A stretch of 64,000 nucleotides of DNA from a virus: positions 32,001-96,000 of IMG/VR virus record IMGVR_UViG_3300043775_002158, one strand, 5' to 3'. The translations under genes were made by a program, and so were the position numbers. This document shows, one piece after another, positions 16,670 through 29,555 of this stretch (its first letter is position 1; each line of letters begins with the position of its first letter). The notes below the pieces were generated by a model that was not told the DNA's origin, ran no database searches, and saw only the letters and a list, made by a program, of their open reading frames with translations.

Positions 16670-17185
16670 ATGACAAAAATAAAAGGACTCTCTCTCCTTT
16701 TATGTACTTTGTTCTTGGCATTCTCTTCATTTGCTCAGGACACACAAAAAGTGTACATATCTGGCGTTGAGAACAAAATTAAAATCGGACGTATGACGTC
16801 TAACCGAAACTTAGCTTTCGGAGTTAAAAACATTTTTGAAGAAATTTTACAGGATAAGGACTTCACAATCGTAGAGGTACGTAGTGAGGCTGACGTTTTA
16901 TTAAACGTTGATTTATTATTTTTTGACGTTAATAAAACTAAAAGAAACGTTTCAGTATTCCATTCTAATGTTGAAGAAACATTGGTAATAATGAAAGGTA
17001 CTATTACCGACAAATCAGGAAAAAAATTAAAAGAGGTGGTGGCCGAAGAATCAAGTTCAGAAATTTCTACATCAACGTTAATCACTGACGAAGGAAGTGG
17101 ACAAATAAACCAACAAGCATTGTCTTCCGCAATTAAGAAGACATGTGTTTTACTTGTAGATAAAATATTTTTAAATAAGAAATGA
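16670..17185 (+). CDS. Secreted protein with CsgG/TolB-N-like alpha/beta fold (tentative)
   Basis: Signal peptide SSFA|Q; pattern parallels 26128..26847. Confidence 0.6.
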   Translation: MTKIKGLSLLLCTLFLAFSSFAQDTQKVYISGVENKIKIGRMTSNRNLAFGVKNIFEEILQDKDFTIVEVRSEADVLLNVDLLFFDVNKTKRNVSVFHSNVEETLVIMKGTITDKSGKKLKEVVAEESSSEISTSTLITDEGSGQINQQALSSAIKKTCVLLVDKIFLNKK

Positions 17186-18831
17186 AAAAACTAACATTAT
17201 TAATGGGATTATTTTTATTAATGTCCCTATCATCATTTGCCCAATTAACAATTAACCAATCTATAACTCCAACTACAGGTTTAAAAGTGGGAGATACATT
17301 AACGGTTAAATATACAATTAATAGAGGGGCAACAACACCTCGTTATTTTTGGTTAAGATACTCTTTTAATAATAAAGCATTGTCAATGGTGTCAAATAGT
17401 ACCACTTTTACACAAGGCAGTTCAACACAAACATTTTATACAGGTTGGGATAATTACAAATTTACACCGGCAGCAAATATTGTGGATACACAATTATATG
17501 CACAATATCAAGTTACACCTTGGGGATATGAGGTAAATTCTGATTGGAATGTTGGACAATTAACAATTCAAAGAGCCGACGCTTCAATTAATGGTGACAT
17601 TGCCACACAAAAATTTGTATTAAAAGACCAAAACACATATAATAATATTCATAAATTAGATTTGGCATATTCAATTAATGCAACAGATGAGTATATTTCA
17701 CCAATTACAAGAAGTTCAACAAACATATCTTTAACCAATGTGGTAGGTAACACATCTCAATTCAAAGTTAGAGTATTATTTCCACAAGGATATACAATTT
17801 CCGACCACAATGTTCAATTGATGAGATTAAAAACAGATGGTAGTGGTGATATTGATTGGTCACAACAACCAATCGCACAAAAAGCATTGGATGCAAGTGG
17901 TGAGGTAATATTCACATCGGGTGTTAAAGTCGGTGATAGTGTTGGTGTATTTGTATCTCCCGCTTCCCAAAAGACTTGGATGAACAACGTAATCACAGTT
18001 TCAGATGCATATAAAGCATTCTTAGGACACTCTCAAACTGATATTAGTGGAACGGCAAACTTCTTTACAAGACCTGTTTTAGAAAGAAAAATAGGTAATG
18101 TAACAAAAAACGATATGACATTTAACGAATCTGACTCATATAATTTATTTGCACACGTAATTGGACAAGATGTATCGGTAAACGCATTTATCCCAACATC
18201 AACTTCAACTTCTTGGAGATGGCATAGTGGTTTATTGAATCAAAGTTGGTTAGATGGTGTTACTAAGAATAGAGTATACATTACGGCTCCATCACAAACT
18301 GTTGATGCAGTATTTGCGTGGGGTGGTGATTTAAACTGGTCACACTCATCTCATCCTGACACAATTGCAACTAAAATTACACAAGGTAATTTCACAAACT
18401 CAATAAACGATAACAAATATCAATCATTCTCAGTAAAGTCGATGTCATATACTCAACCTACATTTGAAAAGGTAACTTTAGGAATTAACTCTACTTTGGA
18501 AAATGGTAAAGTTGTATTAACTACTACATTGACAAAAGAAGGATTGGCAGGTTTACAAGTTATAATGAATTATGACGAAAGTAGATTGACGTTGGATAAT
18601 GTAATATTTGATGCGGGAAGTACGATTACAAACTTCTCAACTCATAAAGATGGTAGATTGACATTTGGATCTATTGATCAATTAAAAACATCAAGAATTA
18701 AAGTAGGAACACCGTATAAATTAATTTTCACTCCTAAAGTTCAATTAACAAATACTGCCGGTTTATTCTTCTTTGTATTGGCGGATGCGGTTGATGGATT
18801 GGGTAAGAAAGTTGATTTGACAATAGAATAA
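17182..18831 (+). CDS. Secreted protein with dockerin-like and C-terminal cohesin-like domains
   Basis: Signal SSFA|Q; ITVSDAY...FNESDSY and WGGDLN; LAGLQVIMNYDESRL. Confidence 0.7.
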   Translation: MKKLTLLMGLFLLMSLSSFAQLTINQSITPTTGLKVGDTLTVKYTINRGATTPRYFWLRYSFNNKALSMVSNSTTFTQGSSTQTFYTGWDNYKFTPAANIVDTQLYAQYQVTPWGYEVNSDWNVGQLTIQRADASINGDIATQKFVLKDQNTYNNIHKLDLAYSINATDEYISPITRSSTNISLTNVVGNTSQFKVRVLFPQGYTISDHNVQLMRLKTDGSGDIDWSQQPIAQKALDASGEVIFTSGVKVGDSVGVFVSPASQKTWMNNVITVSDAYKAFLGHSQTDISGTANFFTRPVLERKIGNVTKNDMTFNESDSYNLFAHVIGQDVSVNAFIPTSTSTSWRWHSGLLNQSWLDGVTKNRVYITAPSQTVDAVFAWGGDLNWSHSSHPDTIATKITQGNFTNSINDNKYQSFSVKSMSYTQPTFEKVTLGINSTLENGKVVLTTTLTKEGLAGLQVIMNYDESRLTLDNVIFDAGSTITNFSTHKDGRLTFGSIDQLKTSRIKVGTPYKLIFTPKVQLTNTAGLFFFVLADAVDGLGKKVDLTIE

Positions 18832-18834
18832 TTT

Positions 18835-27283: not shown

Positions 27284-28107
27284 AAAAATTTTTATTAATC
27301 GTCGGTTTAATTTTAATTTTAACGTTATTTGTTTCAATAATGTTAAACGCTCAAGTAAGTTCTTGGAGAAATAATTCACAACAAAGAACAACCGCACCAA
27401 GAATTCAACCATCAACTCCACAAAGAAATGACGTTAGTCGATGGAGAACACAAACAGAACCAATTAGACCAGGTCAACCTATTCCAAATAGACCTTTAGT
27501 GAGAAGATGGAGAGGTGGGGGTGTAAATCCATATGGATTAATGTGGGGAAATTGGGGGTGGTATCAACCATACCCATATATTTGGTACGATGATTATGGA
27601 TGGAGACATAGAAGTGTAGTTCGTGTTTATGAAAATGGAAAAAGAGATACTGTTAAAAAGGAAACATATTATACTTTAGGTATTGGACATACAAATAACA
27701 ATCAAGCTTCTTTTTGGGGTGCTGTAGGTGGTAATAAAGGATACTTTATTGTTGATTACGTTATGACCTATGAAATTGATCGCAACCAATATTTTCCAAA
27801 TGGTAAAATTAATGAAGTTGATTTTCCGTTAAGTAAAAATGACTTTTTAAAAGAGGGTACATTATATCTTGGTGGAGGTAAGAGATTCGGTAAATTAGGT
27901 GTCCATGGAATGGTTGGATTTGGAAATGAAATTATTAGATACCAAGGTAAAGATGATTTAGGTGGTATTTCATTTCCTAAATCAAATTCAAATTTTACAA
28001 CATTTAAATTTGGTATTATAAGAGATTTCAAATTCTTCACATTAAAGTTAGATAGAGACCCAATAAGAAATTACAATCAAATATCAATTGGATTGAATAA
28101 TAAGTAA
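27280..28107 (+). CDS. Secreted/outer-membrane protein with Trp/Tyr/Gly-rich segment and barrel-like C-terminus
   Basis: Signal LNA|Q; amphipathic strands. Confidence 0.65.
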   Translation: MKKFLLIVGLILILTLFVSIMLNAQVSSWRNNSQQRTTAPRIQPSTPQRNDVSRWRTQTEPIRPGQPIPNRPLVRRWRGGGVNPYGLMWGNWGWYQPYPYIWYDDYGWRHRSVVRVYENGKRDTVKKETYYTLGIGHTNNNQASFWGAVGGNKGYFIVDYVMTYEIDRNQYFPNGKINEVDFPLSKNDFLKEGTLYLGGGKRFGKLGVHGMVGFGNEIIRYQGKDDLGGISFPKSNSNFTTFKFGIIRDFKFFTLKLDRDPIRNYNQISIGLNNK

Positions 28108-29555
28108 TGAAAAAAAATCTAATTGTTTTATTAATTTTATGTTTCATAGGTTTTAAATCATATGGACAAACATTTACACAAACATTTATTGATAAATGTA
28201 CAGGTGAAGTTAAAGTTGCAACAACAACTTATATAAGTGGTAATGCATTTGTATCTTTTTATAATCAAAGTAAAACATTCACACCTTTAGAAGTCCAAAC
28301 AGGACAATTACAATTATGGTTACAAACAACTTACGCAACATATAACTCGATGGCCTGTCCAACAAATCAGGTAGTTCAACAAACAATACAAAATACAGTT
28401 ACACAGGCGGCGGCAACCGCAGCAAGTAATGCAGCATCTTCGGCGGCAAGTAATGCGGCATCTTCAGCTGCAAGTAATGCGGCAAGTTCATCGGCATCAA
28501 CTGCGGCGAGTTCGTCGGCATCAACTGCTGCGAGTTCGTCGGCATCAAGTAGTTCCGCCGCAACATCAAGTTCAAGTACAACAACATCATCTAGTAGTTC
28601 ATCTTCATCTAGTAGTTCATCTTCATCTAGTAGTTCATCTTCATCTTCTGAATCAAAGACTGAGAGTAGTTCTTCATCATCGGAATCAAAATCTGAAACA
28701 AAGAGTGAATCAAAATCTGAAAGTAAATCAGAAGAAAAAAAATCAGAAAGTAAATCAGAAGAAAAAAAAGAAGAGAAAAAGTCAGAGGAAAAGAAAGAGG
28801 AAAAGAAAGAGGAAAAGAAAGAGGAAAAGAAAGAGGAGAAGAAGAAGGAAGAAAAAAAAGATAAAAAGGAAGATAAGAAAGAAAAAAAGAAAGGAGGAGT
28901 ATTAAATCCGATGTTAATTGCCTCAGATTATACTGTTGCTCAAAATGCGGATAAAAGTTTTGGTTCTATGTTAGGGTTGGGTTGGAGTAAATCATCATTA
29001 ATGGGTGACGAATCTTTTTCAGCAAATGCAATTATATGGAGTAACCTAAAACAATTTGCGTTAGGTGGTGGATATACCAAAATGGACTTTAGTGGTGGTA
29101 AATTAAATGCCATACATTCTTATGGTGTAACAACCGCATATTTGAATGGTAATTATATGGGTTTACTTGGTTATACTTACATTAAACCACATCCTAAATT
29201 TGGAACTTACGGATACAATATAGGTGTTGTAAATTTATTCATTAAAGATGAAAAAGGTAAATTTAATTATAGTGTTGTAAGTTCAGCTGTTGCATTTTGG
29301 ACTAAACCATATTCATATTCAAAGAAACTTTCAATATCACCTCAATTATTTGTTATGTCTTCACCATTATCTTATAATACAGTTACGGGAGTAAGTATGG
29401 TTAATAGACACGCAGGATATTTGGTTGGAGGTTCGTTTGATTATAAATTAAGTAAAAGATTTGGGTTTACTTTTAATTATAGAATGAACGGATCAACTCA
29501 ACCATATAGTCCTATTTTACATAACTTCTTGATTGGTAGTAGAATGACATTATAA
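28107..29555 (+). CDS. Secreted protein: N-domain, Ala/Ser then Glu/Lys linker, probable C-terminal beta-barrel
   Basis: Signal SYG|Q; low-complexity stalk; barrel-like C-terminus resembling 22130..23023. Confidence 0.72.
   Translation: MKKNLIVLLILCFIGFKSYGQTFTQTFIDKCTGEVKVATTTYISGNAFVSFYNQSKTFTPLEVQTGQLQLWLQTTYATYNSMACPTNQVVQQTIQNTVTQAAATAASNAASSAASNAASSAASNAASSSASTAASSSASTAASSSASSSSAATSSSSTTTSSSSSSSSSSSSSSSSSSSSSESKTESSSSSSESKSETKSESKSESKSEEKKSESKSEEKKEEKKSEEKKEEKKEEKKEEKKEEKKKEEKKDKKEDKKEKKKGGVLNPMLIASDYTVAQNADKSFGSMLGLGWSKSSLMGDESFSANAIIWSNLKQFALGGGYTKMDFSGGKLNAIHSYGVTTAYLNGNYMGLLGYTYIKPHPKFGTYGYNIGVVNLFIKDEKGKFNYSVVSSAVAFWTKPYSYSKKLSISPQLFVMSSPLSYNTVTGVSMVNRHAGYLVGGSFDYKLSKRFGFTFNYRMNGSTQPYSPILHNFLIGSRMTL
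28405..28892 (+). repeat. Coding tandem repeats (24-nt AASNAASS, 18-nt poly-Ser and 12-nt EEKK units)
   Basis: GCAAGTAATGC, TCTAGTAGTTCATCTTCA and GAGGAAAAGAAA units visible. Confidence 0.85.

Follow-up and report, generated by a model that had tools for sequence, protein, structure and literature searches.

The 64,000-nucleotide stretch of viral DNA analysed here (the window, positions 32,001 to 96,000 of IMG/VR record IMGVR_UViG_3300043775_002158) carries at positions 16670–29555 an island of 17 genes whose products, to judge from sequences and structural models, probably re-dress the infected cell. The island, whose genes are named below by their first position, encodes cohesin-fold and C-type lectin proteins, a CsgG-fold protein, putative outer-membrane barrels, lipoproteins and small membrane proteins. 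We read it as a conserved envelope-remodelling cassette of a T4-like, Flavobacterium-type phage clade that would coat the cell with lectin and cohesin proteins shortly before burst, a reading to which we give an even chance; our best guess for its purpose is late surface adhesion or receptor masking. The window belongs to a single 105,374-bp viral contig with 31% GC and no terminal repeat, and the GC content of the island is the same as that of the rest of the contig. Structural genes on the contig encode a large terminase (TerL, 41189–42967), a portal (43022–44860) and a major head protein (48435–50201). The closest cultured phages by terminase are T4-like myoviruses, including Flavobacterium phage vB_FspM_immuto (28% identity; hereafter immuto). 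The phage presumably ranks among the 'huge phages', given relatives of 200–335 kb, and the sequencing runs that contain the stretch are lake-water metagenomes from many studies.

A preliminary description of this DNA, made from the letters alone, had reported 17 co-directional genes, most of them envelope-targeted. All 17 are indeed plus-strand open reading frames (ORFs), and export signals are enriched among them far beyond chance. Seven signal peptides followed by Gln, also listed in that description, were recognised directly in the translations by their n-region, h-region and small-x-small site, and have the cleavage sites SFA/Q (g16670), SFA/Q (g17182), GFG/Q (g18835), TNA/Q (g22130), ANS/Q (g26128), LNA/Q (g27280) and SYG/Q (g28107). 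The two lipoboxes are likewise present, in g23023 (FSG/C) and g23411 (LAG/C), and the 'several' small transmembrane proteins number five or six. In a crude rule-based regular-expression scan over all 126 ORFs of the contig, a Q-site or lipobox was found in 8 of the 17 island genes compared with 3 of the 109 outside (Fisher p = 2.6e-6, an enrichment of about 30-fold); g27280 was missed by the expression, and adding it by eye brings the island to 9 of 17. Hydropathy marks membrane segments in g21447, g24218, g24856, g25162 and g27059, and g23810 has a Gly/Thr-rich membrane segment that falls under the threshold. Only the lipase g25375 and the FeoA-like g26847 look cytoplasmic. Gln at +1 after signal peptide cleavage is the Q-rule of Bacteroidota. 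A host in this phylum, of Flavobacterium type, fits the data, because the island's signal peptides follow the rule and, independently, the cultured relative immuto infects Flavobacterium.

The centrepiece of the island is a pair of large secreted proteins, g17182 (17182–18831, 549 residues) and g18835 (18835–21423, 862 residues), which have a C-terminal module of about 300 residues in common (E = 9e-17). By themselves, neither matches Pfam Cohesin or Dockerin, and g17182 alone retrieves nothing from the PDB by sequence. In an alignment of 46 non-redundant relatives from related phage loci, Pfam Cohesin (PF00963) is matched by 34 (best E = 2.5e-6), and in the PDB the family profile reaches the cellulosomal cohesin 4ums (E = 0.0099). 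Residues 264–549 of g17182 were modelled with AlphaFold2 (predicted local distance difference test score, pLDDT, 82; predicted template modelling score 0.79), and with this model cohesins came out at the top of a Foldseek search of the PDB (E = 2.7e-7). An independent search with VIA-align returned cohesins at all of ranks 1–20, the best with Z = 14.4 and a root-mean-square deviation (rmsd) of 2.1 Å over 120 of 144 residues; generic Ig-like adhesin domains reached only about Z = 8. Taken from profiles and model, the assignment of a nine-stranded jelly-roll cohesin fold to the C-termini of g17182 and g18835 is solid. The module family has about 3,500 members in a metagenome protein collection, and no second cohesin or dockerin module was found among the other 109 ORFs of the contig.

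The dockerin assignment, read from sequence motifs, is weaker than that of the cohesin. The two proteins had been described as sharing a dockerin-like segment together with a WxGDxN motif and a C-terminal cohesin-like domain; the motif and the cohesin fold stand, while the dockerin is only partly there, with one calcium loop in g18835 and none in g17182. The motif lies within the shared module as W-x-G-D-x-N-x-S-H-S, of which G119 and D120 are invariant in the 46 relatives. Dockerin_1 (PF00404) is weakly matched by 11 of them (best E = 3.2e-4). All g18835-type relatives in the alignment have one canonical EF-hand/dockerin loop, DVDDNGVFNEVD (D-x-D-x-N-G-x-F-x-E-x-D), followed by a helix, and the first dockerin-like segment is truncated in proteins of both types. 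In g17182, the degenerate dockerin-like segment and the WxGDxNxSHS motif stand between N-terminal domains and the cohesin. The C-type lectin and LCCL domains that had been noted in g18835 both score over the curated Pfam cut-offs, Lectin_C (PF00059) at residues 164–267 with 29.9 bits and LCCL (PF03815) at 392–448 with 43.1 bits (cut-off 22.6 in each case). The protein also matches C-type lectins in the PDB, down to E = 3e-5, and its lectin domain has, as read in the sequence, the EPN...E...WND residues of a calcium-dependent mannose-type site (Ca-site-2).

The island recurs across related phages. A relative of g26128 was found on 524 IMG/VR contigs; in the best 80 of these 524 it is 82–98% identical and lies on contigs of up to 335 kb. 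Few proteins of the region are as well conserved as the core ones, which points to strong selection. Full 10-kb flanks were available for 39 loci. All of these have g16670, g23810 and g26128; g28107 occurs in 38 of the 39, g17182 in 37, and g18835 and g24218 each in 35. The accessory genes are much rarer (g21447 in 11, the lipase g25375 in 7, the FeoA-like and PspC genes in 9–10, PspC being the one in 9). The core order of g16670, a cohesin protein, g23810, g24218, g26128 and g28107 is kept in the full-length loci examined, and minimal islands consist of just these six genes, with a single cohesin protein. In 185,579 species genomes, a close copy occurred only in two short, apparently mis-binned contigs of unrelated metagenome-assembled genomes. 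A chimera with host DNA is ruled out by this scarcity, the conserved synteny and the phage genes around the island. The preliminary description had taken the block to be phage-borne, to be looked for in related phages and examined with profiles and AlphaFold models. It is syntenic in the loci examined, its proteins have the proposed cohesin and CsgG folds, and it is not host DNA. Direct scans of Pfam, NCBIfam and PHROG left 11 of the 17 proteins without a match, and a megablast search of the island against 50,697 phage records gave none. Some relatives carry extra cargo in their islands (L047:6469–9917, L049:4729–5328, L072:8318–9010, L077:9264–9992 and L030:3199–3951): a TonB-dependent-receptor-like protein (Plug and OMP_b-brl_3) followed by a 400-residue lipoprotein, a GH19 lysin-type gene, a GT2 glycosyltransferase, a metallophosphoesterase and a 2OG-Fe(II) oxygenase. 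The site is a hotspot for genes connected with the envelope.

Immuto (160 kb), whose host is Flavobacterium sp. LMO8 (Baltic Sea), carries the island in a compact form of six to seven genes. Its gp013 matches Lectin_C (57.3 bits) and is 38% identical to the g18835 lectin domain; gp014 is secreted and no match to the window was found for it; gp015 matches the cohesin module; gp016 is a small g23810-like membrane protein (E = 7e-6); gp017 is CsgG-like and 53% identical to g26128; gp018 is a putative barrel protein resembling g28107 (98.6%, E = 1.2e-15); and gp019 is a small secreted protein resembling g16670 (94%, E = 1.2e-7, 126 columns). In gp015, Pfam Cohesin (36.7 bits) and Por_Secre_tail (34.6 bits) both score above cut-off. 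The type IX secretion system (T9SS) delivers proteins to the cell surface, and the bona fide T9SS type A sorting domain of gp015 means that this protein would, going by its sequence, be a cargo of the host system. A second relative, at L066:7157–9055, matches g17182 collinearly from end to end (E = 1e-8) and has, in addition, a Por_Secre_tail domain (36.4 bits, cut-off 27). These two sorting domains are the strongest evidence for surface display of the cohesin protein, which they make plausible. They also suggest that export by these phages borrows host secretion. The preliminary description had instead envisaged that the phage installs its own trans-envelope secretion apparatus, an idea that our results do not support: no energising or channel component is shown, and the sorting domains of the relatives imply the host system.

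The tandem genes g23023 and g23411 (23023–23779) encode paralogous lipoproteins (E = 1e-9), both of which comprise a Pro-rich tether and a single small domain, a beta-sandwich that resembles a T9SS sorting domain or DUF3244. Their relatives match Por_Secre_tail weakly (15 of 37, best E = 0.0014, below cut-off) and DUF3244 likewise below threshold (16 of 37), and g23411 itself scores 19.3 bits against PF18962 (cut-off 27). We considered whether the lipoproteins might stand in for the absent sorting domain of the window's cohesin proteins and rejected the idea, as the L066 island has the sorting domain without lipoproteins and minimal islands of the L074 type have neither.

The gene g26128 (26128–26847) encodes a non-lipidated protein that belongs, as supported by family profiles and a structural model, to the CsgG/HfaB fold family. 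The window protein alone has no Pfam match at E = 0.1 and no PDB match by sequence. An exhaustive phmmer search gathered 220 relatives clustered at 50% identity, and of 35 mostly full-length divergent relatives, 19 match Pfam CsgG (PF03783, best E = 1.9e-17) and 6 match LpoB; an alignment of the family profile with E. coli CsgG spans 183 positions (E = 0.0012). With the AlphaFold2 model (pLDDT 83), the Foldseek top ten are all CsgG (4uv2/4uv3, E = 9e-8), and VIA-align gives CsgG at Z = 12.6 (rmsd 3.1 Å, 178 of 206 residues), followed by Cj1090c (Z = 10.7) and by PelC, LptE and flagellar ring proteins (Z = 8–10). Of the 'CsgG-like pore' that had been proposed, the fold is thus upheld, and the pore stays a candidate, since a lipid anchor is missing and the modelled hairpin tip is charged. 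Cys11 of g26128 is not conserved (it is Phe in the L072 relative), and a lipobox Cys is found in most of the distant, apparently bacterial, relatives. The model has long hairpins at residues 134–173; the segment equivalent to their tip in E. coli CsgG is Gly- and aromatic-rich. No island protein matches CsgE, CsgF, CsgA, CsgB or any other curli family (Pfam, E = 0.1). A periplasmic ring partnered with a separate barrel, like PelC–PelB or LptE–LptD, is as likely as a self-inserting pore, and the gene arrangement fits either: in the window, putative barrel genes follow one to three genes downstream of the CsgG-fold gene, and in immuto this gene directly abuts the barrel gene, the gp017 stop overlapping the gp018 start. 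We also looked at g16670 (16670–17185), a secreted protein of 171 residues, as a second CsgG/LpoB-like protein. An hhalign match to the g26128 family (86%) covers 28 columns and the PDB gave no match, and we keep this as a lead and not as a finding. In some relatives, the g16670 orthologues are fused to a membrane anchor paralogous to g25162.

Three further secreted proteins, g22130 (22130–23023), g27280 (27280–28107) and g28107 (28107–29555), are putative outer-membrane barrels. A C-terminal beta-signal of the pattern G-x-x-hydrophobic-x-hydrophobic/aromatic is recognised by the barrel-assembly machinery (BAM), and the families end in this pattern: g22130 in GTNFQF, which is kept in all relatives, g28107 in the conserved LIGSRMTL (GSRMTL), and most relatives of g27280 in FGLGxNF. 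The subgroup to which the window's g27280 belongs ends in IGLNNK. The barrels that the preliminary description had named therefore stay putative and are predicted from signal peptides and C-terminal beta-signals, with the GLNNK end of the window's g27280 as an exception, and 'barrel' here refers to these motifs and not to a fold. The g22130 protein (83–94% identity among relatives) is a paralogue of the g28107 C-terminal domain (E = 4e-6); a relation of g27280 to either is not detectable. In g28107, a conserved Cys-containing N-terminal domain and a low-complexity stalk of about 170 residues, Ser/Ala-rich turning Lys/Glu-rich, precede the putative barrel, and the start of the gene overlaps the g27280 stop. 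The g27280 protein has a W/R/P/Q-rich N-terminal region and no family match in library scans. None of the three families matches Pfam, NCBIfam or the PDB by sequence.

The timing of expression was approached through 8-mers enriched upstream of the contig's genes, of which ATATTTAT and TATTTATA are about 20-fold enriched (21-fold for ATATTTAT). Of 35 genomic copies of ATATTTAT, 23 lie 5–40 nt ahead of a start codon in the sense orientation (0.75 expected), and the reverse complement does so once. The extended form ATATTTAT(A) is orientation-specific and sits 11–25 nt before start codons (for example at 41176–41183 and 43010–43017). The motif stands ahead of TerL, portal and other head-region genes, of large genes upstream of the window and of an endolysin homologue. 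Within the island, plus-strand copies at 16658–16665, 11 nt before g16670, and at 25141–25148, 20 nt before g25162, mark the starts of two transcription units; the first ends at a strong intrinsic terminator (25108–25130, plus strand; a 9-bp stem with 5 GC pairs, then a T run). In distinct upstream regions of the relatives, the motif is found before g16670 (14 of 30), g25162 (12 of 29) and g27280 (21 of 34, TATTTAT), and never before eight internal genes (g17182, g18835, g22130, g23411, g23810, g24218, g24856 and g28107). In immuto it precedes the tail spike, terminase, portal, tail fibre and virion structural genes as well as gp013, and is absent before the replication genes adjoining gp013. 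The T4 late promoter sits similarly close to the start codon. Since the motif is common to structural genes and is sited in this way, it is likely, by its sequence context, a late promoter of this group of T4-like Bacteroidota phages, and the island is probably transcribed late, together with the virion genes.

The remaining island genes encode mostly small or accessory proteins. The core gene g23810 (23810–24118) encodes one membrane segment followed by a variable Pro/Ala/Lys linker and a conserved C-terminal tail (...EGDEFKE..PKW), which is almost invariant (KKKEGDEFKEEAPKW) in 20 relatives and has the look of a docking peptide at the end of a tether across the periplasm. The near-core g24218 (24218–24826) encodes a membrane protein with a membrane segment at residues 26–44 and DxDGDG loops, including DEDGDGVMDGLD; in all, its sequence has two hydrophobic segments, three DxDGDG Ca-loop-like repeats and, in the C-terminal part, four Cys (CEHVW...CLKC), and these loops might conceivably serve the cohesins as a dockerin-like counterpart. 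The accessory g21447 (21447–22130) has a Cys-rich N-terminus, a hydrophobic Ala/Gly-rich C-terminal half with a membrane segment at residues 191–209, and no family match in library scans. Two short genes specify an 82-residue membrane protein with about 90% identity among relatives (g24856, 24856–25104) and a 68-residue single-pass membrane protein (g25162, 25162–25368). Also accessory are g25375 (25375–26118), a class-3 lipase (GHSLG; Pfam Lipase_3, E = 8e-27; PHROG esterase/lipase) that has no signal peptide, and the pair g26847 and g27059 (26847–27283), which encode a FeoA-like protein of 77 residues (Pfam FeoA, E = 2.5e-5) and a PspC-domain membrane protein of 74 residues (E = 7.6e-14). 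The island ends at a hairpin, TCCCCG...CGGGGA (29561–29584), between convergent genes.

From the gene content, export signals, folds, synteny, shared promoter motif and sorting domains of the relatives, we infer a course of events in which localisation, complexes, timing and benefit are as follows. The island would be transcribed late in infection as two or three units from the same type of promoter as the virion genes (in immuto, late transcripts of gp013–gp019 would start at the GATATTTATA motif). The products would leave the cytoplasm through the host Sec system and be processed by signal peptidase I, with Gln at +1, or by signal peptidase II. The three proteins with BAM beta-signals at their ends would insert into the outer membrane, and the CsgG-fold protein, probably with its smaller relative g16670, would assemble at the periplasmic face of this membrane beside the barrels, in an arrangement resembling CsgG, PelC–PelB or LptE–LptD, which g23810 with its proline-rich linker could tie to the inner membrane. 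The two large cohesin-bearing proteins may then sit at the cell surface, which the relatives' versions would reach through the host T9SS, joined via cohesin and dockerin-like contacts, one of them bearing the calcium-dependent mannose-type (EPN) C-type lectin. The result would be a multivalent glycan-binding layer over the infected cell just before it bursts, and over its debris afterwards; this layer might glue the cell to neighbouring hosts or particles, or cover glycan receptors and so spare progeny from being lost on debris.

Several observations weigh against this picture. In g17182-type proteins, positions 1 and 3 of the calcium loop are V and K, and the acidic ligands of a dockerin are gone. 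Neither g17182 nor g18835 of the window matches the T9SS sorting domain PF18962 in Pfam, and they may stay periplasmic. In place of the lipobox Cys, the phage clade of g26128 has a signal peptidase I site with Q after it, 8 of the 23 residues at the modelled hairpin tip are charged, and there are no clearly hydrophobic membrane hairpins. Finally, the last base of the promoter-like motif in its island copies is not that of the commonest 8-mer, TATTTATA, and the label 'late' comes solely from the association of the motif with structural genes.

Other explanations share parts of this evidence. The boldest extends the coat into a virus-built surface organelle, a self-assembling lectin scaffold linked by cohesin–dockerin contacts and built late in infection via host Sec, BAM and T9SS. 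Standing on phage-made barrels and the CsgG-fold ring and held by the g23810 tether, it would act as a sticky trap that catches fresh hosts or particles for the progeny; we think this rather improbable. The main rival to envelope remodelling is a lysis or outer-membrane disruption module, in which small membrane proteins would act as holin or antiholin, g23810 and the lipoproteins would be spanin-like tethers, and the ring, barrels and lipase would weaken or depolarise the envelope and so time lysis and bring it to completion. The late-type promoter motif, the five or six small membrane proteins and two lipoproteins side by side, the membrane anchor and Pro-rich periplasm-spanning linker of g23810, the Lipase_3 gene and the GH19 lysin-type gene inside the island of some relatives would all suit such a role, and one in lysis timing has been proposed for the CsgG of phage Melnitz (PMC9004378). 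Yet the sole counterpart of the immuto endolysin sits some 35 kb upstream, beyond the edge of the window, and this separation from the holin and spanin candidates weakens the case for a lysis cassette. Moreover, the lipoproteins, lipase and GH19 gene are accessory and not core, the folded beta-sandwich domains of the lipoproteins are unlike typical o-spanins, and the lectin, LCCL and cohesin domains have no known lysis role. We consider lysis unlikely. Similarly unlikely in our estimate is a periplasmic, envelope-stabilising module without surface display, which would keep the swollen, virion-filled cell intact until lysis, its lectin and cohesin proteins binding periplasmic or outer-membrane glycans alongside the CsgG-fold protein, PspC and the barrels. 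It would account for window cohesin proteins that have Sec signals and no T9SS sorting domain, for a CsgG homologue without features of a membrane-inserted pore and for the PspC-domain protein, and PspA and other membrane-stress genes are common in huge phages (bioRxiv 10.64898/2026.10.24.761521). PspC, however, is an accessory present in 9 of the 39 loci, and the true sorting domain on the cohesin protein of immuto and of L066 targets the cell surface.

Timing bears on the explanations that we rate lowest. Superinfection exclusion, one of the functions offered in the preliminary description, would have the exported proteins block the receptors or DNA entry of competitors from the start of infection, as T5 Llp, lambda Lom and Bor, and T4 Imm and Sp do. 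The island motif is that of structural and not of replication genes, both in this phage and in immuto, which points to late expression and so suits adhesion, or the masking of receptors at burst, more than an early block, and 13 kb is large for such a function; we regard exclusion as improbable. Late expression would also leave little time to profit from nutrient or substrate capture, in which lectins and transport-related outer-membrane proteins would feed the infected cell. A TonB-dependent-receptor-like protein followed by a lipoprotein in one relative's island and the FeoA-like gene in that of the window speak for it, as does the frequent position of outer-membrane proteins of huge phages beside transport genes (bioRxiv 10.64898/2026.10.24.761521), but these receptor-like and FeoA-like genes are rare accessories, the core genes bear no transporter signature, and we hold this to be very improbable. 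Least probable, if by little, is virion decoration, in which exported lectin and cohesin proteins would meet the particles at lysis and add glycan binding. The promoter type is that of the virion genes, but signal peptides separate the products from cytoplasmic assembly, and the lack of a second cohesin or dockerin module on the contig speaks against it as well.

The island is flanked by a minus-strand tRNA array on one side and a minus-strand RNA-repair block on the other. A tmRNA (tag DNVYNTMEIAGLLATSKVAA) and an array of six tRNAs occupy window positions 9851–10247 and 15407–16534 (minus strand), with a Bacteroidota-type TAnnTTTG element at about 16602–16609 on the same strand, immediately upstream of tRNA-Thr. 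To the left of the array, at 10568–11987 and 13916–15118 (minus strand), a Glyco_tranf_2_5 glycosyltransferase (E = 3e-31), a metallophosphoesterase and a radical SAM protein are candidate envelope- or nucleic-acid-modification genes. The RNA-repair-type block (30047–32269, minus strand) comprises a cREC_REC receiver domain (E = 3.7e-23), a T4 Rnl1-like RNA ligase (E = 6e-20) and an AAA_33 kinase-like protein, and may counter host tRNA-cleaving defences; a Lon-like protease (32723–34735) lies beyond it. Two copies of a 31-nt near-repeat bracket the island (16668–16698 and 29584–29614; 81% identical without gaps, with exact ATATGACAAAAA and CTCTCTCCT ends), one over the g16670 start codon and the other just beyond the terminal hairpin; repeats of similar length and 70–80% identity are common in this AT-rich DNA.

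Relatives of the module occur in hundreds of large lake phage contigs, and an envelope-remodelling role would add to the few ways in which phages are known to rebuild the surface of their hosts. It would also tie phage biology to the T9SS of Bacteroidota and bring cohesin–dockerin and C-type lectin modules into virology; if the surface organelle were real, it would be the first use by viruses of a cellulosome-like assembly principle, and one widespread in abundant lake phages. The role of CsgG clusters in aquatic T4-like phages has been a question since 2020, and the cultured pair of Flavobacterium sp. LMO8 and immuto, which carries a miniature version of the island, makes it directly testable.

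Phage-encoded CsgG genes have been known since 2020 (PMC7029224, PMC9004378). Pelagimyophages of the HTVC008M group and the OM43 phage Melnitz carry partial curli (type VIII secretion) clusters with CsgG, for which aggregation ('sibling capture'), uptake or lysis timing have been discussed as possible roles (PMC7029224, PMC9004378), the adhesion idea of 'sibling capture' having been raised for the pelagimyophage curli genes (PMC7029224). Like the island described here, these clusters belong to T4-like aquatic phages and combine a CsgG homologue with other exported proteins in the absence of CsgA and CsgB. The island differs in its Bacteroidota host, its non-lipidated CsgG homologue and the lack of any CsgF, CsgE or curlin match, and it adds cohesin, dockerin-like and C-type lectin proteins, putative barrels, lipoproteins and a link to the host T9SS. 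The E. coli CsgG channel (4uv3, 6lqh) is the best structural match of g26128 and also a profile match, and the equivalent of its constriction loop carries the most conserved motif of the g26128 family, YPEL..KRVG. In contrast to the channel, g26128 has no lipobox Cys, a charged hairpin tip and no curli partners, and the constriction residues N55 and F56 are not conserved. With PelC–PelB and LptE–LptD, the island shares the PelC/LptE fold of g26128 (Z = 8–10) and a CsgG-fold gene near putative barrel genes; PelC and LptE are lipoproteins, unlike g26128, the island has no polysaccharide or lipopolysaccharide transport genes, and any physical pairing of ring and barrel is putative. Cellulosomal and non-cellulosomal cohesin–dockerin systems have in common with the island the cohesin fold and, in g18835, a canonical dockerin-type calcium loop followed by a helix, whereas here both modules reside in one polypeptide, one intact loop (g18835) or none (g17182) takes the place of a duplicated pair, enzymes are absent, and the genes are virus-encoded in a Gram-negative T9SS context. 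Huge phages are known to encode outer-membrane and other envelope proteins that are transcribed in nature (Yuan & Chen 2026, bioRxiv 10.64898/2026.10.24.761521). That survey, which covers outer-membrane proteins (678 of them from freshwater), PspA and sortase B, resembles the present case in that large phages place proteins of their own in the envelope of the host, and it makes no mention of CsgG, cohesin, dockerin, lectin, curli or this multi-gene module. Our literature search likewise turned up no description of a phage cohesin/dockerin/lectin module or of phage-encoded T9SS cargo of this type. Overall, phage clusters of host-envelope genes that contain a CsgG relative were known before, and what appears new here, as far as our literature search reached, is the cohesin/dockerin-like/lectin module with its link to the T9SS.

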